Counted from the first letter of the stretch, positions 28,568 to 48,284 are shown. The stretch is 64,000 nucleotides of DNA from Gammaproteobacteria bacterium (GCA_965243395.1 CBDEUS010000001.1:1-64000), one strand, 5' to 3'. The notes: generated from the sequence alone by a model not told the origin. Numbers and translations: made by a program.

Positions 28568-28570
28568 GCA

Positions 28571-28622
28571 TAGGGATATGCGAATATGAGACGCATCATG
28601 GATGATGCGCTCAAATTAGAGT
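28571..28622 (+). repeat. Array end motif L1 (~50 bp), inverted relative to 30455-30505 and 47026-47053
   Basis: TAGGGATATGCGAATATGAGacgCATCATGGATGATGcgcTCAAATTAGAG matches the reverse complement of 30455-30505 (TATGGATATGCAAATATGAGtaaCAACAGGGATGTTGttTCAGATGAGAG). Confidence 0.75.
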
Positions 28623-28808
28623 CAGGAAGAAATAAAAAATGCAGGTTGGAAAAATTGAATTCAAAGTTTCATTATGTCCGCTAACGACCAATAGCGGACA
28701 TTCAACAAATTATCTTTAACGCTGAAAAAAGCCCATATGTCACTTATAAGGCTGTATAAATTTTCAACTCATACTATTCTTACAACAAATTTCTAGTTGG
28801 GGTGACAA

Positions 28809-29840
28809 ATGCACATCAGTAAAGTTGATTTAATGAAGGCTGCTGAAAAAGGTTTGTTGAGAAGCGAGCAAGTTGAACCCTTGTACGAATTTCTTGGCTC
28901 CATCGATAGTAAAAGCCCAAAATTTGATTTCACCCACGTCCTTTATTACCTAGGTGGTTTAATAGCTATTGGTGCCTTAACTCTTTTCATGAATCTAGGT
29001 TGGGAAGAGTTTGGTGGATGGGGAATATTTTTTATATCTTTGCTATATGCAGGTATTGGATTTAAGTTTACAAATTATTTCCGTGACAAAGATCTGCATA
29101 TACCTGCAGGAATATGTGCTGCATTTATAGTTGCTTTGACACCACTTGCTATATATGGATTTCAGCAGGGTATGGGATGGTGGCCTGAAAATACTCCATA
29201 TAGAGAATATCATCGTTACATTAAGTTTTTATGGATCTACATGGAGCTTGGTGCACTTGCCGTCGGGGCAATAATTGTTTGGAAGTATCGTTATCCATTT
29301 TTACTCATGCCTATTGCTGCAACTCTTTGGTATATGTCCATGGATATTGCAGAGATTATTACTAGCGACATCGTACATTTTGAAGAACGGGCTAAAATTA
29401 CAATGGGATTTGGGCTTGCAATGACATTATTTGCATTGCTCGTAGATATTCGGTCCAGAAAATCATTAGATTATGCATTTTGGCTTTATTTATTTGGAGT
29501 AATGGCATTTTGGGGAGGGTTAACCTCTCAACATTCGGATAGTGAGCTCGCTAAGTTTTTTTATTTCTGTATCAACTTGGTTCTAATAGGACTTGGTGTA
29601 ATTTTAGTTAGAAAAGTTTTTGTAGTATTTGGCGCATTGGGATGCGCATTTTATCTTGGACATTTAGCAAATGAAGTGTTTAAAGATAGTTGGTTATTTC
29701 CCATTGCACTGACTGTTATAGGAATTACGGTTATTTATTTGGGTGTGCTATGGCAAAAAAATGAAAAGAGACTTACAGATAATCTTAGGGGTTACTTACC
29801 AGCTGCTATCCAAGAGCTTCTAGAAGGAAAACGCATTTAA
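28809..29840 (+). CDS. Multi-pass membrane protein (DUF2157-like), cassette gene
   Basis: About 10 hydrophobic segments; N-terminal 'AAEKGLLRSEQVEPL...YYLGGLIAIGA' pattern. Confidence 0.75.
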   Translation: MHISKVDLMKAAEKGLLRSEQVEPLYEFLGSIDSKSPKFDFTHVLYYLGGLIAIGALTLFMNLGWEEFGGWGIFFISLLYAGIGFKFTNYFRDKDLHIPAGICAAFIVALTPLAIYGFQQGMGWWPENTPYREYHRYIKFLWIYMELGALAVGAIIVWKYRYPFLLMPIAATLWYMSMDIAEIITSDIVHFEERAKITMGFGLAMTLFALLVDIRSRKSLDYAFWLYLFGVMAFWGGLTSQHSDSELAKFFYFCINLVLIGLGVILVRKVFVVFGALGCAFYLGHLANEVFKDSWLFPIALTVIGITVIYLGVLWQKNEKRLTDNLRGYLPAAIQELLEGKRI

Positions 29841-29918
29841 CAATATGTTTTAAATGACTGCTTACGACCCAAAGCGGACATTTCCACAATCATAGATTTC
29901 ATTCTTTAAAATCTCATC

Positions 29919-30416
29919 ATGGCTGTTTTTATACACCTATTTGACGAACGAAATGCAAGCTCTATTCGCAAGAATGGAATCAAAATTTCAAAAAACTCGA
30001 ACAAAGAAATTAAAGGTGTATTTGCATATCCACAAACAGAAAATTTTGTTGTAAATCATCAGTGGATGCGGGAATTACGACGGCGTGCAGGACAAAATAT
30101 TTTGGCTGCTCGATTTAGGATTTCCGATAATACTGAAGTATTGGTAGGAAAATATAATGAAGAATCAATAGTTACTTCGGCTTCTAATGCAATTGGAATT
30201 GTCCGACAACATATTGATCCTATGGGATTAGAAGTAATAGTTACAAGGCCAATTAAGCCGCGAGAAATTATATCAATTTACAAACCACCTAAAGTAAGTG
30301 GATGGCGATATTATCCAAATGCTAAAGGCGAAAAACCTTGTGGTTGTCCTTATTGTCAGCGCGGTGAGCCATATAGTAAAAAACTGAGAATCAAATATGA
30401 GAAAGATTTTGAATGA
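29919..30416 (+). CDS. Hypothetical protein with C-terminal CxCxxC motif, cassette gene
   Basis: 165-aa ORF containing PCGCPYC; its TGA stop lies inside the 28-bp site at 30413. Confidence 0.8.
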   Translation: MAVFIHLFDERNASSIRKNGIKISKNSNKEIKGVFAYPQTENFVVNHQWMRELRRRAGQNILAARFRISDNTEVLVGKYNEESIVTSASNAIGIVRQHIDPMGLEVIVTRPIKPREIISIYKPPKVSGWRYYPNAKGEKPCGCPYCQRGEPYSKKLRIKYEKDFE

Positions 30417-30454
30417 CCGCTATTGGCCGAAAGCGGGCATTTATAAAGCTCGTA

Positions 30455-30505
30455 GCTCTCATCTGAAACAACATCCCTGTTGTTACTCATATTTGCATAT
30501 CCATA
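30455..30505 (-). repeat. Array end motif R1 (inverted copy of L1)
   Basis: GCTCTCATCTGAAACAACATCCCTGTTGTTACTCATATTTGCATATCCATA. Confidence 0.75.
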
Positions 30506-30609
30506 TGATCACTACCGACCCATAGCCGCCCTTCGTGAACTAAATCACACATTTTTAAATTGTGCAGGGATCTTAGCTACTAAACTGATAGTATCGAGCA
30601 CTTCTATAA

Positions 30610-31149
30610 ATGTATGTTCAATATATGCTTTTCCCACCCGTTCCAGAGAATGAGTCAATTCGCTTGCAAGCACTGCACGAGCTAAATCTTCTTGATACTC
30701 AACCGGATGAAAGAATTGACATCATTACAAAGTTTGCGTGTTATTTTCTAAATGCACCTATTTGTCTAGTTTCCCTCGTCGATGAAAATCGCCAATGGTT
30801 TAAATCTTGTGAAGGATTAAACGTTAAGGAAACTCCACGCTATATGTCATTTTGTGCCCATGCAATTTGTCATACCTCAACTCTTAATTCAGATTCACGA
30901 ATTTTTGAAGTATGTGACACATATATTGATAGTCGATTTATAGATAACCCCTTAGTTACAAAATCTCCTGGGATTCGATATTACATTGGTTATGTGTTGC
31001 AATCTGAATCGAAAATGAATTTAGGTACTTTTTGTATCATCGATACAGTACCTAGAAAATTTTCTGAAAGTGAAAAAGACTTACTAAAGGCACTAGGAGT
31101 TATGGTAGAAAATTTATTAATTAAGAATTCACATTTTCCTCATAATTAA
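30610..31149 (+). CDS. Stand-alone GAF domain protein, cassette gene
   Basis: ENESIRLQALHELNLLDT...SLVDENRQWFKS...SFCAHAI...DSRFIDNPLV...GTFCIIDTVPR is a typical GAF domain; no output domain. Confidence 0.88.
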   Translation: MYVQYMLFPPVPENESIRLQALHELNLLDTQPDERIDIITKFACYFLNAPICLVSLVDENRQWFKSCEGLNVKETPRYMSFCAHAICHTSTLNSDSRIFEVCDTYIDSRFIDNPLVTKSPGIRYYIGYVLQSESKMNLGTFCIIDTVPRKFSESEKDLLKALGVMVENLLIKNSHFPHN

Positions 31150-39662: not shown

Positions 39663-40658
39663 ATGAAAAAATTTTCTGCTTTTCGAATCCATTCAAACAG
39701 TGAAGGTACACAAGCAGGAATTGAGCAACTCAGTATTGATGATCTTTGCGAAGGTGATGTTGTTATCAAGGTAAAGTATTCAAGCGTAAATTATAAAGAT
39801 GCACTTGCGGGTTCTGGTAGAGCGCAAATTCTTCGACGTTCACCATTAGTGGGAGGTATAGATCTAGCTGGTGAAGTTGTTGAATCTACAAGTGGTGAAT
39901 TTGTTCCGGGTGATCAGGTCTTAGTAAATGGTAGCGGTTTAAGTGAAACACACGATGGGGGCTATGCAGAATTTGCTCGCGTTCCCACAGATTGGGTTGT
40001 GCCTTTACCAAAGGGATTAAGTTTAAGCCAGACTATGATTATTGGTACGGCGGGTTTTACAGCCGCATTATGTGTGCACTTGCTAGAACAGAATAATCAA
40101 AAAGTAGAAGATGGCCCGATTGTTGTTACAGGAGCAAGTGGTGGCGTTGGTAGTTTTGCGATCAATATATTACATAAGCTAGGCTTTGAAACCATCGCAG
40201 TGTCAGGCAAAAAAAATTCGTTTGACTACTTATATGAATTAGGGGCTACTAAAGTAGTAGGTCGTGAAAAAATCAAAATAGGAGATGGTGTATTAGAAAA
40301 AACACGTTGGGCTGGCGCTATTGATAACGTCGGTGGAGAAACATTAAGTGCATTGGTGCGTGCGACCAAGCCATGGGGAAATGTGGTCAGTGTTGGCATT
40401 GCGGGTGGAGTAAAATTTGAGCTTTCAACCATGCCATTTATTATTCGAGGCGTGAACTTATTAGGTGTAAGTTCATCTAATTGTCCACAAACACTTAGAA
40501 AAGTAATTTGGAATCGTCTTGGCGATGATTTGCACCCTGATCAAATAGCTAAGATACATTCTGAAACAGTTAAGTTAGAAGATTTACCGCAGATATTCGA
40601 AAAATTACTTAATAATGAAATTCAAGGCAGAACGCTTGTGGAGGTAAGTAATGATTAG
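39663..40658 (+). CDS. YhdH/AcuI family MDR oxidoreductase (acryloyl-CoA reductase-like)
   Basis: YSSVNYKDALA, GTAGFTAAL, VTGASGGVGS, PFIIRGVNLLGV motifs. Confidence 0.9.
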   Translation: MKKFSAFRIHSNSEGTQAGIEQLSIDDLCEGDVVIKVKYSSVNYKDALAGSGRAQILRRSPLVGGIDLAGEVVESTSGEFVPGDQVLVNGSGLSETHDGGYAEFARVPTDWVVPLPKGLSLSQTMIIGTAGFTAALCVHLLEQNNQKVEDGPIVVTGASGGVGSFAINILHKLGFETIAVSGKKNSFDYLYELGATKVVGREKIKIGDGVLEKTRWAGAIDNVGGETLSALVRATKPWGNVVSVGIAGGVKFELSTMPFIIRGVNLLGVSSSNCPQTLRKVIWNRLGDDLHPDQIAKIHSETVKLEDLPQIFEKLLNNEIQGRTLVEVSND

Positions 40659-41205
40659 AAGGTTTTTTATGAAAAATACTTATACAGTTTTAATTTTTAC
40701 TTTTGCGCTTCTCGCGAGTGCGATGGTTTATGCGGCAAAAGTGAACCCTCCTGCGCAAATGCCTGAGTTTACCCAAATGGATCAAGCTGCATGGATCAAT
40801 TCAAAACCTTTGGCAGTAAGTGATCTGCGTGGCAAGGTAGTTTTAATTGACGTATGGACTTATGGTTGTTGGAATTGCTACAACTCATTTCCCTGGTTAA
40901 GAAGTGTTGAAGAAAAATTTGCAGATCAAGATTTCACAGTGATCGGTATTCATACACCAGAGTTTGAGCATGAGAAAAAACGTGAAAATATTGTTAAAAA
41001 AGTAGAAGAATTTATGCTGCATCACCCTGTGATGATTGACAACGATTTTGCCTACTGGCGTGCCTTGCGAAATAAATATTGGCCTGCATACTACATAGTT
41101 GATAAGCAAGGCAACATTCGTAAAGGGTTTATTGGCGAAACTCACCAAGGAGATCGCAGAGCAAAAAAGATTGAAAACTTAATTGCTAAATTGCTGAAAG
41201 AATAA
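40651..41205 (+). CDS. Exported redoxin (DipZ/TlpA-like thioredoxin); start may be 40669
   Basis: WTYGCWNC, GIHTPEF, YWPAYY motifs; signal peptide. Confidence 0.9.
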   Translation: MIRRFFMKNTYTVLIFTFALLASAMVYAAKVNPPAQMPEFTQMDQAAWINSKPLAVSDLRGKVVLIDVWTYGCWNCYNSFPWLRSVEEKFADQDFTVIGIHTPEFEHEKKRENIVKKVEEFMLHHPVMIDNDFAYWRALRNKYWPAYYIVDKQGNIRKGFIGETHQGDRRAKKIENLIAKLLKE

Positions 41206-41440
41206 GATTTCCATCAGGCGTGATGCATCCGATTCAAGGTAAGTGAGCTAATATCAATAACAGCTTAGGAATTTCAATTCAGAGCTTCAAAATAACTGCT
41301 TATAGCCCAAAGCAGATATTAAATAATTACTAAACGTAATCGCCGACTAATAAAATAGTCTAATCTTCGTTCTACATACGTGCATTTAATGTAATGAATT
41401 GGAGTTTAGTTTACTAGACTCAATGTTTACAATTAGACAC

Positions 41441-42718
41441 ATGTCAAATAAACATCATGTTGTTGTTATTGGAGCTGGGTTTGGCGGAATACAAACTGTC
41501 CATCATCTCAAGCACAAAAATGTCCGCATCACACTTATTGATCAGCATAACTATCATCTTTTCCAGCCCTTACTATACCAAGTTGCAACCGCATTATTGG
41601 CACCATCAGAGATCGCCTGGCCAATACGTAATTTGGTACGTAAGAGAAAGGATATTACTACTTTATTAGCAGTAGTAGCGGATGTAGATAAAGATAACAA
41701 AAAAGTTATTCTAGAAAACGGCGAATCAATTACATACGACACTCTTGTAATAGCAACAGGAGCACGTCACGCTTATTTTGGACATGACGAATGGTCAAAA
41801 TATGCCCCGGGCTTAAAAGTTTTAGAGGAAGCTACATCTATAAGACACAAAATTTTGATCGCATTTGAACGAGCTGAATTTGAAACAGATAAAATGAAAC
41901 AGGATGCGCTTTTAACTTTTGTAATAGTTGGTGGTGGCCCAACAGGTGTAGAACTTGCTGGCACAATTGCCGAGCTTGCGCACCATACGCTATCTAACGA
42001 ATTTCGCCATTTTGATTCTAAAACCACTCGTGTAGTGCTTGTAGAAGCTTCTTCCCGGATTTTGTCTTCATTTTCGGAAAGTCTGTCGAACTATGCAAAG
42101 AAAGCTCTAGAGAATCTCGGGGTAGAAGTTCAACTTGGGCAGCCTGTATCAACCTGTGATGAGGATGGCGTGACTATAGGTTCTGAAAGGCTAAACTCTA
42201 AAACAATTCTTTGGGCAGCAGGGGTTCAAGCATCACCCGCGGCAAATTGGCTTAATGTGCAAGCTGATCATGCAAATCGTGTCATCGTAGAGCCAGATTT
42301 AACGATCCCGAACAATTCAGAAATATTTGTTATTGGAGACACAGCATCAATTAAGGATAAAAATGGCCATCAAATTCCTGGCATTGCACCTGCCGCTAAA
42401 CAACAAGGGCACTATGTAGCCAAACAAATCAAAGCACGTCTTCAAGGTAAAAAATTAACAAACCCATTTCAATATAAAAGCTTTGGGCAGATGGCAACGA
42501 TTGGTAAACGTGCAGCAGTTTTTGAAATCGGTAGACTGAAATTTCATGGCTGGCCTGCTTGGTGGTTATGGGGAATAACACATATTTACTTTTTAATCGG
42601 GGTGCGTAATAGGATGTCTGTTGCATTAAGCTGGTTATGGATTTACTTCAAAGGTGATAGAGGTGCGCGATTGATTACAAACTTTGATACAACAACAACT
42701 GAGAAATTTGAAGAATAG
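41441..42718 (+). CDS. ndh: Type II NADH dehydrogenase-like FAD oxidoreductase, cassette gene
   Basis: VVIGAGFGG, HLFQPLLYQVAT, VGGGPTGVELAG, VIGD, APAAKQQG motifs; ATG at 41441 preferred over TTG at 41399. Confidence 0.9.
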   Translation: MSNKHHVVVIGAGFGGIQTVHHLKHKNVRITLIDQHNYHLFQPLLYQVATALLAPSEIAWPIRNLVRKRKDITTLLAVVADVDKDNKKVILENGESITYDTLVIATGARHAYFGHDEWSKYAPGLKVLEEATSIRHKILIAFERAEFETDKMKQDALLTFVIVGGGPTGVELAGTIAELAHHTLSNEFRHFDSKTTRVVLVEASSRILSSFSESLSNYAKKALENLGVEVQLGQPVSTCDEDGVTIGSERLNSKTILWAAGVQASPAANWLNVQADHANRVIVEPDLTIPNNSEIFVIGDTASIKDKNGHQIPGIAPAAKQQGHYVAKQIKARLQGKKLTNPFQYKSFGQMATIGKRAAVFEIGRLKFHGWPAWWLWGITHIYFLIGVRNRMSVALSWLWIYFKGDRGARLITNFDTTTTEKFEE

Positions 42719-42799
42719 CAGTAACGTGTTGTTGGAACTATTTAATACGAAATGCTTTAAGATGTCTGCTCACGACCCAAAGCGGACATTTTGGTCATC

Positions 42800-43150
42800 A
42801 TGAAATTAATCGTAAATTGCATACTGCATATTAGTTTTATGATTGTATTTGGTTGTTCACAAGAACCTATAATAAATAATTCAAAATTTGCTGAAAGCTT
42901 AATAGAAGAACATTTTTCTATAGGTACGCACGTAAATGAGATAAATAAATTTTGTGACAAAAATGGATATGCAATATATGAAGCTACTAAATGTGAAAAT
43001 AATCAAGAAAGTTGTTCCCATGGAGCACTTGTAACTGTGTCGACACCAAATAATAGCTGGTGGTATGGAAATGGGCTTATTCAAATATATTTAACATTTG
43101 ATGATAATAAAAAATTAAATCATATTAAGCACGAAATATATTATGACTAA
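42800..43150 (+). CDS. Hypothetical lipoprotein, cassette gene
   Basis: MKLIV...IVFGC lipobox-like signal; ATG 10 bp after a 28-bp site; TAA lies within the next site. Confidence 0.7.
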   Translation: MKLIVNCILHISFMIVFGCSQEPIINNSKFAESLIEEHFSIGTHVNEINKFCDKNGYAIYEATKCENNQESCSHGALVTVSTPNNSWWYGNGLIQIYLTFDDNKKLNHIKHEIYYD

Positions 43151-43173
43151 CGACCCAAATCGGACTTAGCTTT

Positions 43174-43470
43174 ATGACGAATCAGCTATCAAACGAAGAA
43201 GAAAAGGAGCTTTCATCCCTTTATCTTCAAGCAATTATTATTGCTGACAAATTTGCTAATGTAGATTCAAATGAGTCGGAAGCGATTATTGGAATGAATA
43301 ATATTCTAACCAGTGTAAAACCTATAGTGGAAGCGTCTTATCAGAAGAAAAATTTAAAAGGCATGAGGATGATTATAAGTGACTTCAAAGAGATGTTTTC
43401 TGGGTGCTCAGATGAAGATCGGCAAGCAACAAACAAAATATTTAAACAAAATAATTTAGCTGAGTGGTAA
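43174..43470 (+). CDS. Hypothetical protein, cassette gene
   Basis: 98-aa ORF filling the interval between sites 43143 and 43480. Confidence 0.7.
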   Translation: MTNQLSNEEEKELSSLYLQAIIIADKFANVDSNESEAIIGMNNILTSVKPIVEASYQKKNLKGMRMIISDFKEMFSGCSDEDRQATNKIFKQNNLAEW

Positions 43471-43526
43471 TTCGCAAGTATGACCGCTAATGACAGAAAG
43501 TAGAATTTAGTAAAAAAGGGATAATT

Positions 43527-43955
43527 ATGAAACGTTTAATATTCGCTGTATTATTATTTAATGTTGTTTCAATTACTTTAGCTGCACCTCCTAAACCCGC
43601 TGAAACTAAATATCTAAAAACAGAAGTTGGTGGATTCGCAATAGAGAAAGGAAAAGCACTTTATTCTCTACAATATAAAATTAAAAAGCCCTTTGATAAA
43701 AAAATTTCGGCACAGATTCAGTACGAAAATCCTGATCCCAATGGAGGAAGTTTGATTGATGAATTTATAATTAATCCAGGGCAAGTATCAATTTCTGTCG
43801 AATCAGTAGTGTTAAGTTGTATAAAAAACAATAAAAAATATAAAGTTGTACTAAAACTATTCGACGACGGTAAGCAAATTACCAAACATAAAGATAAGGT
43901 ACAGTTTGCTTTACCAGATGAGATAATTCAGCAGTTAAAAATTACATTATGCTAA
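43527..43955 (+). CDS. Secreted hypothetical protein, cassette gene
   Basis: MKRLIFAVLLFNVVSITLA signal peptide; RBS-like AAGGG upstream. Confidence 0.8.
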   Translation: MKRLIFAVLLFNVVSITLAAPPKPAETKYLKTEVGGFAIEKGKALYSLQYKIKKPFDKKISAQIQYENPDPNGGSLIDEFIINPGQVSISVESVVLSCIKNNKKYKVVLKLFDDGKQITKHKDKVQFALPDEIIQQLKITLC

Positions 43956-44019
43956 ATGCGTAAATATCAGCTTTCGAACAAAAGCGGACATTTAAAATTA
44001 ATGTTCTAATATCATCAAA

Positions 44020-44508
44020 ATGCGTTATTTTCTCTTAGTTCTGACTATATTTTCCAACCTATGTCAAAGTAATCAAGAAGAAGTCTACGTTCAATATAAC
44101 GAATATTTTAACCATGTTAATAGTTCAACAAAAACTGAACCCATTAGTATTTATTTTACAAAAAAAGAAATTTTAAAAAGCAAACAAGCCATCAAAACAA
44201 TGAGAGAGCATGGTTTTAGCGATGACTACATAAAGGATAGTATGTGGAAATATCTCGCAAGAGGCGCACGATTCAAAGAAATATCAGATCATGCAGAGGA
44301 TAATTATTTAGATGATAGTAAATGTTTGGTAATACGAGGTTTATACCATAATAATAAATGGGTAAGTGCAATTCACAAATACGATTACGAAGATGGTTCA
44401 TTTAAGATTGATAGTATTTTTTTAGATTATGATGATGGTGGTGATGAACTATTTATTCACGCTAATCTAGATTTATGTGATTTATTACATAGTGAAACTG
44501 CTACATAA
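44020..44508 (+). CDS. Secreted hypothetical protein, cassette gene
   Basis: Signal-like N-terminus; TAA immediately adjacent to the site at 44509. Confidence 0.75.
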   Translation: MRYFLLVLTIFSNLCQSNQEEVYVQYNEYFNHVNSSTKTEPISIYFTKKEILKSKQAIKTMREHGFSDDYIKDSMWKYLARGARFKEISDHAEDNYLDDSKCLVIRGLYHNNKWVSAIHKYDYEDGSFKIDSIFLDYDDGGDELFIHANLDLCDLLHSETAT

Positions 44509-44546
44509 ATGACCGCTATTGGCCGAAAGCGGATATAAAAATTTGT

Positions 44547-45014
44547 ATGAAAAGACAATCACCATTAGTTTGTTGGATACTTTCAGTAATTACCAGCGGC
44601 ATTTATTCATTATATTGGCTTTATAATCGCAGTGATGTAATTAATGAAATGTCGGGTAATACTAATTTTCAAGGAAAGAAAATGGTTAAGAAAATATTGT
44701 TTTCATTTGTAATTGTGTCTGTATTAATGTGTTTAGCGCTATATTTTGATCCTAATCAAGTCAGTAATAAAGAAGCAGATGATGATTTATTTAGCATATT
44801 TTTATGGCTAACATTTTTCGCCGCTATGTTTTATACATGGTCGATTATTCAAGCATTTTACAAAGCTGGATATGCTATCCAAACATTAGAAAAGAAACAG
44901 GACATCGAAAACCAATGCTCACCTTATTTATCATGGGTATTATTATTTTTTTTGTACTTTAATATTCCTTATTTGCAATCTCATTTAAATTGCTTGGGTG
45001 GTCCACAGGAATGA
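44547..45014 (+). CDS. DUF4234-like membrane protein, cassette gene
   Basis: KRQSPLVCWILSVITSGIYSLYWLY...YLQSHLN pattern; TGA lies inside site 45011. Confidence 0.78.
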   Translation: MKRQSPLVCWILSVITSGIYSLYWLYNRSDVINEMSGNTNFQGKKMVKKILFSFVIVSVLMCLALYFDPNQVSNKEADDDLFSIFLWLTFFAAMFYTWSIIQAFYKAGYAIQTLEKKQDIENQCSPYLSWVLLFFLYFNIPYLQSHLNCLGGPQE

Positions 45015-45071
45015 CCGCTATTGGCCGGAAGCAGACATATTTTACTTATAATGGTTTAAATTAGTTTTGAA

Positions 45072-45536
45072 ATGAGTACATATATACATCATCTAACTGC
45101 GAATGATATGACAATCATGAGAGCTATGCTCATAACATTTGGTGAAGTATTCAATGACATGGATACCTATACTGAAAAACAGCCTAGTTCAAACTACTTG
45201 GAAAAATTACTCAATAAGGATTCATTTATCGCATTGGCAGCTTTAAAGAATAATAATGTCGTTGGCGCGATGGTAGCTTATGAGCTTGTAAAATTTGAGC
45301 AAGAACGCAGTGAATTCTACATTTATGATCTAGCAGTAGATAAATCTCATCGGCGTGAGGGTATTGCAACTGGCTTGATAGAAGAGCTAAAAAATATTGC
45401 TGCAAAACGAGGAGCTTACGTAATTTTTGTTCAGGCTGACAAAGGTATTGAGGATGAACCAGCAATTGCACTCTATAATAAGCTTGGAAAAACTTGTGAG
45501 GATGTATTCCACTTTGATATACAAGTTAATGATTAG
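45072..45536 (+). CDS. aac(3)-I: AAC(3)-I family aminoglycoside N-acetyltransferase (GNAT), cassette gene
   Basis: FGEVFND..TY...QP...YL..LL....[26 protein letters not shown]...[32 protein letters not shown]...EDV.HFDI: the motif series of AAC(3)-I (aacC1-type) enzymes. Confidence 0.9.
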
Positions 45537-45596
45537 AATGTCCGGTATCGATCCAAAGCGGACTAATTATAGAAAACTGACAATCCTATAACATTT

Positions 45597-46097
45597 ATGA
45601 GAATAATATTTTTTTTAATACTAATCATTTTAATATGTTCGTGGTTTTATTATGGGCATTGGATCTTTAACAATAAAAAACTATCTTGGAAAATTATTTG
45701 GGTATTTGTAACAATTCTACCGTTTATTAGTTTTTATTATTTAACTAACCCAAGTGTTAACTATTACAAAAATCAATTTACACTTATATCAGGGTTTGAG
45801 TTTCCTTCAAATGGTATATTTATAGACTATTCTTCATCGTTTCCAGATTTACAAGGCGATTATAGCGTTTGTGGTTTGTTCAAAGCTCCAACTGATTTCA
45901 TAAAAATACTAAACTCTACAATTCCTACAATACAAAATGGTCAATTCAAGCCACGAATGTTTTGCAAATTGGATGAGAAATCAAAATATTACTACACAAA
46001 TGTTTTAGATCTTGAAAATGAGGAACTAGGAGTTACAGGAATACTTGGTATCAGCACCGAAACAAATGTTGTTCATTTTCAATTTTTTAGAAATTAA
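45597..46097 (+). CDS. Hypothetical membrane protein, cassette gene
   Basis: Two N-terminal TM segments; flanked by sites 45538 and 46101. Confidence 0.7.
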   Translation: MRIIFFLILIILICSWFYYGHWIFNNKKLSWKIIWVFVTILPFISFYYLTNPSVNYYKNQFTLISGFEFPSNGIFIDYSSSFPDLQGDYSVCGLFKAPTDFIKILNSTIPTIQNGQFKPRMFCKLDEKSKYYYTNVLDLENEELGVTGILGISTETNVVHFQFFRN

Positions 46098-46166
46098 ATA
46101 AAATCCGCTATTGGTTGAAAAATATGCAAAAATGACAATTAGAACTTATATAAAAATATTTTAATC

Positions 46167-46607
46167 ATGAAAGATATAAAAAAAGTTTTTCGTAATCTTG
46201 AAAGAAAATTGAACAAATCAAGTTGGTTTGATAATGGTTGGGAGATTTACAACCGTGGTGTTTATCTGCAACTCTACAAGGATAGCTGGCACAATCATAA
46301 TCAGGGTGGAATTCATTTTGAAACTTTTATTGAAGCGAGAGAAGTTAAACAAAAGGCATTCCCAATCTGTATGCATGCGGAGGAAGATTGCCCCTCACAA
46401 CAGACTTTCATTCAAGAGTTTATGGCATTGGAAGGTGATCGAATAAAGGGTTGGAAAGGTTATCAAATTGGCGAAGGCTACAGCATCTGCAAAAGAACAC
46501 TTCCTCTTAATTTTAAGAATCTGGAGCAACGGTTATTAGAAGAGTTCAGCAGACTTCGACAACTGGAAAAAAGCGTGGAAAAGGCACTGAGTCTAGTTCA
46601 AATTTAG
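46167..46607 (+). CDS. Hypothetical protein, cassette gene
   Basis: 146-aa ORF containing LQLYKDSWHN...GIHFETFI. Confidence 0.78.
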   Translation: MKDIKKVFRNLERKLNKSSWFDNGWEIYNRGVYLQLYKDSWHNHNQGGIHFETFIEAREVKQKAFPICMHAEEDCPSQQTFIQEFMALEGDRIKGWKGYQIGEGYSICKRTLPLNFKNLEQRLLEEFSRLRQLEKSVEKALSLVQI

Positions 46608-46676
46608 GCTGGCTTACACGGTGCAAACATTAATGGCTGAAAGCAGTCATCTAATTAATGTAATAAGGTATTAAAA

Positions 46677-46970
46677 GTGATTAGAAAACTATTCCTGTCT
46701 ATTATATTTATACCTGTCATTTCATCGGCGTGGATGGGGGGTGGAGGCGGTAAAAGTTATGAGGATGGCATGTTTTGGGGTGCTGATCTGGATCGAAACG
46801 AACGTTTAGATCGAGAGGAAGCTAAGGCTGTTTATAATTTAGCAGAAGATGAAATTTTTACACGCTATGATAAAAATGGGAACGGAACAATAAATCTACC
46901 TGAATTTATGGAATTTTTTCAACATTCTCCATGGACGAATAAAATTAATCATCCTAAAGCTAAAGAGTAA
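46677..46970 (+). CDS. Secreted EF-hand calcium-binding protein, cassette gene
   Basis: Signal peptide; EF-hand loops DLDRNERLDREE and DKNGNGTINLPE. Confidence 0.8.
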   Translation: MIRKLFLSIIFIPVISSAWMGGGGGKSYEDGMFWGADLDRNERLDREEAKAVYNLAEDEIFTRYDKNGNGTINLPEFMEFFQHSPWTNKINHPKAKE

Positions 46971-47025
46971 CTTAAAATGATGTGATTTGAGTCAGTGCAG
47001 CACTTGAATTATAAAAGATTATTAT

Positions 47026-47053
47026 TGTTGTTACTCATATTCACATATCCTTA
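47026..47053 (-). repeat. Array end motif R2
   Basis: TGTTGTTACTCATATTCACATATCCTTA matches 30478-30505 TGTTGTTACTCATATTTGCATATCCATA at 25 of 28 positions. Confidence 0.8.
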
Positions 47054-47054
47054 C

Positions 47055-48284
47055 TCAAGCGAAGAACCAATAGCCTAGTGTAATTGCGGCGATGATGCCT
47101 GCCAGGTCCGCAAACAATCCACAGCCAATTGCATGACGCACACGATTAATGCCGACACTCCCAAAGTAAACGGCTAAAACATAAAAAGTTGTTTCTGTAC
47201 TGCCTTGCACAATAGCAGCTACATTAGCGGCAAAAGAATCAACACCGTAGTTGTTCATAGTTTCTAATAACATTGCGCGTGCTCCGCTGCCTGAGAAGGG
47301 GCGCATTAAAGCAGTGGGCAAGGCGGCGATGAAGTCTGGATTTAAACCAAGCGTTATTACAACTTTTTCAATACCTTTCAGCACCATATCCAATATCATG
47401 CTGGCACGTAGTACGCCGATAGCTACAAGCATGGCAACTAGATAAGGAATAATTTTGAGAGCGACATCAAAACCCTGTTTGGCACCATCAATAAATGCGT
47501 CATAAACATTCACTTTGCGTAAAAAACCCATAACAAGAAATGCAATGATGATTAAAAGTAACAATAAATTACCAAGTAAGCTGGATCGCTCTGCAAGTGA
47601 AGAGGAACTTTCACTGAGTAAAAATGCTAGGAGTAAACCGATTAGTGCTCCAAAACCCAAAAGATAAAATAATACAGTTTTATTAAATAGATTTAGGCGC
47701 TGAATGAATGCGACGAGTAGTAAGCCAGCAAGTGTTGAGCAACAAGTGGCAAGAAGAATGGGAATGAATACAGCGGTTGGGTCTACAGAACCTTGCTGTG
47801 CGCGAAATAAAAAGATTGTTACGGGTAGTAAAGTTACTGACGATGTATTGAGTACTAAAAATAAAATCTGGGCGTTGCTGGCAATTTCTTTTTCAGGATT
47901 CAGTTCCTGCAAATCTTGCATCGCTTTAAGGCCGAGCGGAGTTGCAGCATTGTCCAGTCCCAGCATATTTGCAGCCATGTTCATTGTGACTGATCCTATT
48001 GCGGGATGATCGCTTGGTACTTCCGGCATGAGTTTTTTAAACAGAGGGCGGAATGCTTTCGTAAGTAACTCAACAAATCCAGCGCGTTCTGCAATAGTGA
48101 AAAACCCCAGCCAAAGACACAATACTCCAACTAAACCTAGAGCAATTTCGACACTTAAGGAAGCCATATCGAAAGTCGCCTGCACGACCTGTGCAAAGAT
48201 GCCATTGTTATCACGAACAATAAATTGATAAATACAGCTTAGAAATGCTGCTAGGAAAAATCCGAGCCAAATGTAGTTAAGCAT
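47055..48284 (-). CDS. Fused SpmA/SpmB (nucleoside recognition 'gate' domain) membrane protein
   Basis: ANMLGLDNAATPLGLKAM, LVLNTSSV, RPFSGSGA, GSTETTFYVLAVYFGSV motifs. Confidence 0.92.
   Translation of the reverse strand: MLNYIWLGFFLAAFLSCIYQFIVRDNNGIFAQVVQATFDMASLSVEIALGLVGVLCLWLGFFTIAERAGFVELLTKAFRPLFKKLMPEVPSDHPAIGSVTMNMAANMLGLDNAATPLGLKAMQDLQELNPEKEIASNAQILFLVLNTSSVTLLPVTIFLFRAQQGSVDPTAVFIPILLATCCSTLAGLLLVAFIQRLNLFNKTVLFYLLGFGALIGLLLAFLLSESSSSLAERSSLLGNLLLLLIIIAFLVMGFLRKVNVYDAFIDGAKQGFDVALKIIPYLVAMLVAIGVLRASMILDMVLKGIEKVVITLGLNPDFIAALPTALMRPFSGSGARAMLLETMNNYGVDSFAANVAAIVQGSTETTFYVLAVYFGSVGINRVRHAIGCGLFADLAGIIAAITLGYWFFA

Follow-up and report, generated by a model that had tools for sequence, protein, structure and literature searches.

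How does a run of unrelated, co-oriented genes, each accompanied by a copy of the same 28-bp palindromic element, come to stand between two conserved genes of a bacterial chromosome? The question is raised by a locus in a 64,000-nt stretch of DNA from a Gammaproteobacteria bacterium (GCA_965243395.1, CBDEUS010000001.1:1-64000), which corresponds to C1:1-64000 of the genome referred to here as G000 (2.58 Mb, 38% GC, two contigs, C1 and C2). We call this whole stretch the window, and coordinates without a contig name count from its first base. To our knowledge, integrons are so far the only well-understood bacterial route by which single promoterless genes are stockpiled and reshuffled, and the origin of their cassettes is open. 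A preliminary description of the window proposed that the array at 41292-47053 is an integron-like gene capture and shuffling system built on sites that are not attC, with its recombinase encoded elsewhere. We found this proposal to be supported in part: the architecture, the turnover of the genes and one moved cassette agree with it, while the recombinase was not found. We put the probability that the region is a cassette system recombining at these elements at about one half.

The element itself is well defined in the window. The motif ATGWCCGCTW-N8-AAGCGGACAT, searched at up to three mismatches, gave 15 strand matches at eight positions, compared with 0.03 strand matches expected (100 shuffles, none of which reached 15). 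All ten sites that had been described proved to be real: those at 42762, 43964, 44509, 45011 and 45538 were recovered at this threshold, and the other five are degenerate. The 3-bp deletion reported for the copy at 43143 is present, and the sites at 46101 (nhmmer E 0.2) and 46623 (E 0.01–0.5) are partial copies. With open reading frames (ORFs) called by a longest-ORF heuristic, as throughout this work, the stop codon lies in the site or 0–15 nt before it at eight of the ten sites, the exceptions being the first site (86 nt) and the site behind the NDH-2 gene (43 nt), and nine of the ten genes start 1–38 nt downstream of a site. A Pfam family was found for four of the ten cassette proteins; the identities previously assigned as NDH-2, DUF4234, GNAT and EF-hand were confirmed by Pfam and that of AAC(3)-I by NCBIfam.

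The same organization recurs across the genome. In G000, 96 windows match the element at up to four mismatches, and a profile built from 78 copies gave 86 matches at E<1e-3 and 93 at E<1e-2. Of these 93 matches, 87 are clustered, compared with a mean of 20.7 and a maximum of 38 when copies were placed at random (1000 trials). They fall into 17 multi-site clusters, or 23 clusters when six singletons are counted, and the multi-site clusters span 46 kb, equal to 1.8% of the genome. The motif is not scattered behind core genes, a distribution that had been named as a reason to abandon the cassette proposal. Among the 86 strong profile matches, 84 are intergenic by simple ORF calls and 81 have their asymmetric loop oriented as the nearest gene. 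The 106 genes adjacent to sites are shorter than those of the rest of the genome (median 160 versus 230 aa) and poorer in GC (35.5% versus 38.9%), and they include a single paralogous pair, so that the description of the window genes as AT-rich, co-oriented and unrelated to each other holds genome-wide. The pattern of one site per co-oriented, mostly promoterless ORF was found here as well, and promoter-like sites are not enriched (24 versus 28 expected). In six arrays taken together, 45 of 70 ORFs have no Pfam family and the other 25 comprise domains of unknown function (DUFs) and small enzymes (OsmC, GFA, SRPBCC, isochorismatase, SNase, Rap1a-like and others); no recombinase or transposase family was detected by Pfam among the 70.

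Comparison with relatives, each species represented by one genome, revealed complete gene turnover between species at two fixed loci, in agreement with the site-bounded gain and loss that had been suggested as a test. The first locus, which holds the window array and extends from quinone oxidoreductase and thioredoxin-like genes to the gene of a nucleoside-recognition "Gate" membrane protein, is syntenic in 10 genomes of the genus and has a gap of 1.1–12.5 kb. Five species have neither element nor cassettes there, and the 1.1-kb gap has no cassette; G002 carries one site-bounded ORF, G001 three or four, and G012 a different 12.5-kb set. The flanks are 90–97% identical between G000 and G012, yet none of the ten cassette proteins is shared, and blastp of the ten G000 cassettes against the same locus in the other genomes returned no match. 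At the second locus (28.6–31.2 kb of the window), G000 has ORFs of 343, 165 and 179 aa, G012 an unrelated 345-aa ORF, G001 ORFs of 97, 139 and 130 aa, G002 the element only, and G003 a plain bidirectional terminator.

Individual cassettes could also be followed to other places. The 343-aa cassette of the second locus in G000 is found in G001 about 100 kb from that locus, within another array, with 83% DNA and 89.5% protein identity. The homology covers exactly 28674-29882 of the window: it sets in at the first base of one site, extends to the end of the following one and disappears on either side; the conserved gene upstream has 77% DNA identity. Three adjacent cassettes of the window array are arranged differently in G012, where a copy of the AAC(3)-I cassette (90% identical) lies at another locus and is directly followed by a homologue of cassette 9, and a copy of cassette 8 (75% identical) lies on another contig behind its own site, which is of the type named B below. 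The homology of cassette 8 to this copy begins 8 nt into site 8. Five relatives were also searched with two more arrays of G000, 7.7 and 12.6 kb long. Matches to the shorter one were limited to its flank, the repeated elements and a single 0.46-kb stretch (73% identical, in G004). The 12.6-kb array shares, in addition, several gene-sized stretches (0.3–1.6 kb); as each of these has its own, different contig in the relative, the array's gene order is not preserved.

What kind of sequence bounds these genes? The 28-bp palindromic site is present as described, though it is only the core of a larger modular element that includes two variants, a 101-bp doublet and flanking inverted modules. Type A has the loop TTGGCCGA (44 copies) and lies at or over stop codons, and type B has the loop ACGACCCA (38 copies) and lies just before starts. 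Type A is conserved in its left arm and loop and type B in its loop and right arm, the other arm being decayed in each case, and this pattern of one good arm is the same in single and paired copies. Type A resembles an inverted type B at 22 of 28 positions. The geometry can be read as 11-6-11 or as 10-8-10, with one strongly conserved half-site per copy.

Upkeep of the palindrome by compensatory change was not seen. Watson–Crick pairs fill 595 of 840 arm cells, a number attained in 1538 of 2000 shuffles (shuffle mean 598.9); the position pair 6/23 is C.G in 27 copies, C.A in 25, T.G in 22 and T.A in 3. Single sites fold weakly as DNA (-4.7 and -6.1 kcal/mol), and 31 of the 44 A copies fold better on the antisense strand, the sense strand often having C.A mismatches. 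Because there is no covariation, folding is weak and one arm is conserved, the constraint looks like sequence recognition rather than a hairpin, and the element looks like one that is recognized as duplex DNA.

Joint occurrences of A and B take the form of a 101-bp A-45-B doublet, in whose conserved interior GGTTGGAATCAA is found. Conservation is good in its outer arms and weak in its inner arms, and doublets across a genome are 75–90% identical over approximately 101 bp. The doublet is the standard junction in a 16-kb array of G012, in which the 15 kb examined contain 39 matches, 14 doublets and 25 ORFs. No target-site duplication was visible by eye around 10 doublets, and no insertion sequence (IS) with doublet-like ends was found, DDE transposase families not having been searched. 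Arrays are in turn bracketed by a hairpin-forming module and a GGTTGGAA stretch before the first B site and by an inverted copy after the last A site, as in the pairs 28568-28673 with 30441-30525 and 41207-41291 with 47020-47050 of the window. The folding z-scores of boundary modules are -5.2 (array-initial, second locus) and -3.5. The GGTTGGAA stretch is also conserved about 30 nt upstream of many B sites.

In our reading the window region is one of about 20 chromosomal cassette arrays in G000. The unit is a short ORF, in most cases an orphan, that comprises little beyond its coding sequence and carries a B-type 28-bp element just upstream, an A-type element at or over its stop codon, or both. 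Two complete units meet in the 101-bp inverted doublet, and the whole array sits in a longer inverted module between core genes. This architecture, the clustering, the orientation with the genes, the turnover at fixed loci and the moved cassette are observed; that recombination takes place at the elements, and that a sequence-specific protein performs it, is inferred. The elements may serve as duplex sites recognized by a sequence-specific protein, at which recombination would lead to cassettes being gained, lost and reshuffled. If the elements are such exchange sites, the array would function like an integron array or a cluster of attC sites lacking integron integrase (CALIN), with a different family of sites and without IntI.

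Several results weigh against this model, first among them those of the search for an enzyme. No candidate enzyme is in hand: the recombinase that was expected to be encoded elsewhere was not found among IntI, Y1 transposases or REP-associated tyrosine transposases (RAYTs), IS110, serine recombinases, reverse transcriptases or conserved additional tyrosine recombinases. In G000 the best IntI score (TIGR02249) was 83 bits compared with a cut-off of 265, and there were no matches to Y1/RAYT (PF01797, 0 matches), IS110 (PF01548), serine recombinase (PF00239) or reverse transcriptase (PF00078). The genome has five tyrosine recombinases (PF00589), namely XerC, in a dapF-DUF484-xerC-hslVU neighbourhood, XerD, beside dsbC, and three phage-type integrases, for which searches of five relatives, among them G012 as the closest, gave nothing above 42% identity. 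Nor was any enzyme family recurrent within about 8 kb of the element at 120 genome and 120 metagenome loci. The recurrent neighbours at the genome loci were ABC substrate-binding proteins and histidine kinases, as judged by reading the sequences, and those at the metagenome loci comprised ordinary enzymes together with small membrane proteins of a loose family; a phage integrase was present at two loci.

The fine structure of the exchanges adds further difficulties. For the AAC(3)-I cassette, the 5' untranslated region has no counterpart in G012, where the junction retains the right arm only, and some breakpoints of homology coincide with ORF ends instead of falling within the site. Neither an excision product nor a precise site-to-site deletion between near-identical strains was seen in the contigs available, and the 101-bp doublet had no match in plasmid or phage collections. 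Some metagenome contigs switch neighbour inside a site (X7 records 30 and 31) and are not assignable to the window locus; apparent contig joints say nothing on excision, because their 18–29-nt sides are the repeated site itself. Lastly, the orientation that is so regular in G000 is random at high-GC loci elsewhere, where 55 cores are on the same strand as the gene and 47 on the opposite strand among the matches listed, as with ordinary repetitive extragenic palindromes (REPs).

These high-GC loci belong to a distribution that extends well beyond the genus. At up to two mismatches, the element is found in 14 of 14 genomes of the genus (in G014 as a single copy), with 24–164 matches per strand in 13 of the 14 other genomes. 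It is present in 20 of 24 family genomes sampled, with up to 164 matches per strand, and is absent from small genomes of 1.6–1.8 Mb. Among 401 genomes sampled across the class, more than four matches on a strand were found only in this family and one other. A scan for the exact 24-nt core identified at least 120 loci, and the matches listed include many Alphaproteobacteria (especially Pseudolabrys metagenome-assembled genomes, MAGs), Xanthomonadales, one betaproteobacterium and one Verrucomicrobia MAG. At the high-GC, mostly alphaproteobacterial loci the core often occurs as tandem hairpin doublets with a 17-nt spacer. The core is an old, widespread REP-like motif, as its sequence distribution suggests, and since it lacks orientation bias in Alphaproteobacteria, the motif alone does not define a cassette system. 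At low-GC loci, by comparison, 16 cores are in the same orientation as the gene and one in the opposite orientation among the matches listed, and together with the random orientation at high-GC loci this indicates that the cassette organization is specific to this gammaproteobacterial lineage.

The hairpins in Pseudolabrys and other alphaproteobacterial MAGs (L009-L128, for example L018, L021, L078 and L083) stand in pairs or triplets about 45 bp apart, the first loop G-rich and the second GACCCA. They are often near expanded paralogues that resemble ABC substrate-binding proteins, as judged from the sequence only.

The strongest competing explanation, which we consider possible and tend to disfavour, is that the elements are repeats like REPs, REP doublets forming hairpins (REPINs) or miniature inverted-repeat transposable elements (MITEs) with no dedicated role in recombination, that such a selfish or domesticated palindrome, the 101-bp inverted doublet being its complete unit, has built up between the genes of hypervariable islands, and that the genes turn over by horizontal transfer and by homologous recombination or slippage over repeats of 28–140 bp. 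The empty enzyme search, the main weakness of a site-specific reading, is also the main support for this explanation, which needs no enzyme. It accounts for the core as a high-copy intergenic palindrome in Alpha-, Beta- and Gammaproteobacteria and one Verrucomicrobia MAG among the matches listed, and for its unbiased tandem hairpin doublets at high-GC loci. The doublet, with its ends inverted at 22 of 28 positions, resembles a REPIN or a MITE with terminal inverted repeats, the identity between doublets is sufficient for recombination, and breakpoints are observed anywhere from the ORF end to the interior of the site. As far as the accessible part of the literature describes REPs, REPINs and bacterial interspersed mosaic elements (BIMEs), the likeness extends to an imperfect, GC-rich palindrome of 28 bp situated in AT-rich intergenic DNA, to its inverted pairing in units of approximately 100 bp, and to high copy number, occurrence throughout the lineage and vertical persistence.

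A short, high-copy extragenic palindrome with inverted doublets is indeed what we found, whereas paired hairpins and dispersed copies, the other marks of a REP, were not: pairing is at shuffle level (595/840) and copies are clustered (87/93). A cognate RAYT is missing from G000, from four of five site-rich relatives and from three of five distant carriers; PF01797 was detected in one of the five relatives and two of the five distant carriers, and no copy of the element borders the single IS200-like gene that was inspected. In the same accessible sources, REP/REPIN-RAYT systems differ from the present one, which has no RAYT, clustered copies, agreement with the gene strand and a palindrome that is not maintained. 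Strand agreement at 81 of 86 matches and stop codons inside the element are unexpected for a freely inserting repeat, and no target-site duplication is visible by eye at the doublets. The explanation also leaves open how each new orphan gene acquires its flanking element, and a core that is almost identical in different bacterial classes points to a protein that recognizes it.

A second explanation, which we regard as improbable, would confine the elements to the RNA level, as intercistronic signals for stability, processing, termination or translation that travel with accessory genes. Their position on the gene strand, exactly between a stop and the next start, would fit such a role, as would the GGTTGGAA stretch upstream of many B sites and the array-initial module, which folds well (z -5.2) and shows stem changes that preserve pairing by eye. 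The sites themselves behave otherwise. Their arms do not covary, C.A mismatches fall on the sense strand, antisense folding is better in 31 of 44 A copies and single sites fold weakly. T-tract terminators were not found on the strand of the genes, nor was there any enrichment of promoter-like sites. Rfam gave no family at E up to 1 in the window from 27 to 48 kb, and at E up to 0.1 on 10 loci it gave tRNAs and one sub-threshold chance match. By itself, an RNA signal leaves the turnover of cassettes at the sites unexplained.

Very improbable, in our estimation, is a system in which the housekeeping XerC and XerD act on the 28-bp sites, as in the pdif modules of Acinetobacter or in integrative mobile elements exploiting Xer (IMEX). 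In pdif modules, one or a few genes are bounded by alternately oriented, two-armed 28-bp sites on plasmids, no recombinase gene is known to lie in or beside the module, and a universal host enzyme has been proposed as the engine. The array studied here shares with them the two-armed 28-bp sites around one or few genes and the lack of an adjoining recombinase, its 11-6-11 reading is the geometry of dif with a 6–8-bp centre, XerC and XerD are the only recombinases common to all carriers, and a universal host enzyme would explain the conservation of the core across classes. Element-free genomes also have XerC and XerD, however, and the sites are direct repeats on a chromosome rather than alternating ones. 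That the sequence is not dif, as had been stated, was upheld: the only dif-like site of G000 at up to six mismatches is at C1:959290, the arms of the element match it at 6/11 and 4/11 positions by eye, and the inner bases of the XerD arm are missing from the element.

This single, canonical dif-like site is about 34 kb away from the point of C1 at which the cumulative GC skew is highest. On C2 a separate skew minimum is seen at about 450 kb, so that C1 and C2 may either be distinct replicons or result from a rearranged assembly.

The closest functional parallels are integron arrays and CALINs, in which attC is an imperfect inverted repeat of 57–141 bp with R'' RYYYAAC and R' GTTRRRY ends. Like them, the present arrays have one short, mostly orphan, promoterless-looking ORF per repeat, all in one orientation, with stops in or near the repeat; their content turns over fully at a fixed locus, they have a junction of approximately 100 bp with stronger outer repeats, and they include an AAC(3)-I cassette. 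Unlike integrons, the G000 system has no IntI, no RYYYAAC/GTTRRRY cores and mostly 28-mer junctions, and it comprises about 20 arrays per genome with their own inverted boundary modules instead of one platform of attI and the promoter Pc. The earlier conclusion that the sites are not attC is supported: the strict RYYYAAC..GTTRRRY pattern had no match on either strand of 41206-47054, and none in an array at C2 536-543k, the positive control being weak (four matches in the G041 integron array, none in that of G052). Three filters for collecting canonical attC sites returned 0, 0 and 6 sites, some of the six doubtful. The 101-bp doublet is within the attC length range, and the single 28-bp sites are outside it. 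IntI scored above cut-off in 5 of 56 family genomes (G041, G015, G052, G014 and G056:C1), none of them a site-rich genome of this genus; G014, where it lies on C20, is the sole genome of the genus with IntI and has a single element copy. In G041:C9:386-398k, G015:C29:1-8k and G052:C3:220-225k, IntI is followed by a divergent array with canonical ..YTAAC...GTTRR.. attC sites; these arrays lack the element and gave only partial 15–16-nt profile matches.

That the region is a degenerate integron remnant, a CALIN with diverged attC sites served in trans by IntI, is the least probable explanation of all, for which the single site per co-oriented ORF, a doublet of attC length with outer and inner repeats like R and L boxes and the integrons of 5/56 family genomes can be cited, set against the absence of IntI from G000 and 13 of 14 other genomes of the genus, the canonical and different attC of the IntI-adjacent arrays in the same family, the empty strict-pattern search of the window array and the predominance of single 28-mers, below attC length, at the junctions.

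To return to a cassette system that recombines at the elements, a bolder version of it can be stated tentatively. The arrays may constitute an integron-independent platform for cassette capture, in which a modular element is recognized by a type of recombinase or host factor so far not connected with the movement of cassettes, and about 20 arrays per genome would thereby be built and reshuffled across the family; the REP-like core copies of other Proteobacteria, which are far more widespread, could then be substrates or relics of the same machinery. A partial parallel is provided by the intergenic mosaic elements with dRS3 arrays of Neisseria, in which a short palindrome with an 8-bp spacer is repeated, marks variable regions and is an insertion target, and to which an IS110-type enzyme is linked. 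The palindrome, its 8-bp spacer and its arrayed occurrence in variable regions are alike; the blocks between dRS3 repeats are non-coding rather than ORF-sized cassettes, and G000 has no IS110 gene. No description of the element or of such a cassette system was found in the literature as represented by abstracts, subscription journals being mostly beyond reach.

Arrays of orphan ORFs, their turnover and a resistance-family gene arise here without IntI or attC, despite true integrons in sister genomes. The question of what else can build cassette arrays becomes directly testable, and a palindromic repeat family that is abundant in many Proteobacteria gains a possible function. Tools based on attC or IntI will miss such arrays.

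The window array lies between two genes outside it, a thioredoxin-like gene (AhpC/TSA/Redoxin by Pfam; 40651..41205, plus strand), whose orthologues at the same locus in the other genomes compared are 64–90% identical, and the Gate gene (by Pfam; 47055..48284, minus strand), whose orthologues are 84–97% identical in 13 of the 14 other genomes of the genus. The features between them are all on the plus strand except where noted. The left boundary module (41207..41291), identified by eye, consists of a hairpin-forming stretch and a GGAAT-type stretch and is like the module upstream of the first B site of other arrays; by eye, 41210-41235 resembles the stretch upstream of the C2:999516 site. It is followed by site 1 (41292..41319), which is degenerate, with four mismatches (profile E 2e-4), and was typed "other". 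Cassette 1 (41399..42718) encodes a 439-aa NDH-2-type pyridine-nucleotide oxidoreductase (Pyr_redox_2 and NDH2_C), copies of which occur at other loci in relatives with about 69% DNA identity. Site 2 (42762..42789) is of type B with the loop ACGACCCA, supported by motif and profile, and precedes cassette 2 (42791..43150), a 119-aa ORF without a Pfam or NCBIfam match, to which nothing in the DNA of the other 55 family genomes corresponds. Site 3 (43143..43167), a type B copy with the 3-bp deletion in its left arm (E 0.43 and 0.01), contains the stop codon of this cassette.

Cassettes 3 to 5 are ORF calls without a Pfam family, of 98 aa (43174..43470), 142 aa (43527..43955) and 162 aa (44020..44508). 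Between them stand site 4 (43480..43507), which is A-like with a decayed right arm and four mismatches (E 0.019), and site 5 (43964..43991), which has an atypical loop and an ambiguous orientation, the profile scoring the minus strand better. Site 6 (44509..44536), a type A copy with the loop TTGGCCGA recognized by motif and profile, has its first base directly after the stop codon of cassette 5. Cassette 6 (44547..45014) encodes a 155-aa DUF4234 membrane protein (Pfam), and its TGA stop codon is inside the left arm of site 7 (45011..45038), a type A copy found by motif.

Cassette 7 (45072..45536) encodes a 154-aa aminoglycoside N-acetyltransferase of the AAC(3)-I family (NCBIfam NF033083, 221 bits, cut-off 200) that is 57–67% identical to plasmid-borne members such as AAC(3)-Id; a resistance-family gene (45072-45536) is here housed in a non-integron cassette array. 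It is followed by site 8 (45538..45565), B-like by motif and profile, cassette 8 (45597..46097), a 166-aa ORF call without a Pfam family, site 9 (46101..46128), A-like with a decayed right arm (E 0.24), and cassette 9 (46167..46607), a 146-aa ORF call likewise without a Pfam family. Homologues of cassette 9 with 78–87% DNA identity occur in at least nine genomes; of the other ORFs around them, five are in families common to two or three regions and the rest are unshared. In site 10 (46623..46650), which is A-like, only the loop and right half are recognizable (E 0.46 and 0.011). Cassette 10 (46677..46970) encodes a 97-aa EF-hand protein (EF-hand_1, Pfam), and its paralogues and homologues, with 70–82% DNA identity, are scattered over many genomes. 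The right boundary module (47020..47050) is by eye an inverted copy of the left hairpin module, and this sequence is also present behind the final A site in other arrays, as seen by eye in comparison with window 30470-30505, C1:423392+ and C2:997811; past 47050, other contigs continue differently. One terminator-like site was detected in 41000-47200, on the minus strand, and an intrinsic terminator was rejected as an identity for the element.

The second, smaller array of the window (28568..30525, plus strand) lies outside the range first described. It consists of a boundary module, a B site (28674-28701), the 343-aa ORF, a B site (29854-29881), the 165-aa ORF, an A site (30413-30440) and an inverted boundary module, and is followed by the 179-aa ORF call (30610-31149). 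Its array-initial hairpin (28590-28615; L164 in G012, L167 in G002, L166 in G001) is about 40–75 nt past the stop codon of a 440-aa gene. The stem varies between species with pairing kept by eye, and the loop carries a conserved GGA in a context that we take to resemble CsrA/RsmA binding hairpins; at the far end of an array, where the module is inverted, GGA would be absent from the gene strand. At one locus the B site of G012 (L164, C5 ~2130-2208) and G002 (L167, C3 ~2043-2120) is split by a loop insertion of about 50 nt, which is common to the two species, has CGACC as a direct repeat on its two sides and itself contains small hairpins. This insertion within the B loop suggests that the loop is marked as an insertion point.

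Further observations concern arrays outside the window. Three arrays of C1, at C1:878330, C1:893500 and C1:901999, end with an A site and a common stretch of about 50 nt with a GGGTG..CACCC hairpin and ACAAAACCCGCG, which is a second kind of array-end module. The 16-kb array of G012 (C1:15-31k), the largest seen, lies directly downstream of a long operon on the same strand, the ORF sizes of which are nuoA-N-like, as judged by size only; its position behind a same-strand operon suggests expression by read-through. The array at C1:232.3-236.1k of G000, with 12 sites mostly in doublets, abuts a tRNA-Met gene (C1:232100-232176).

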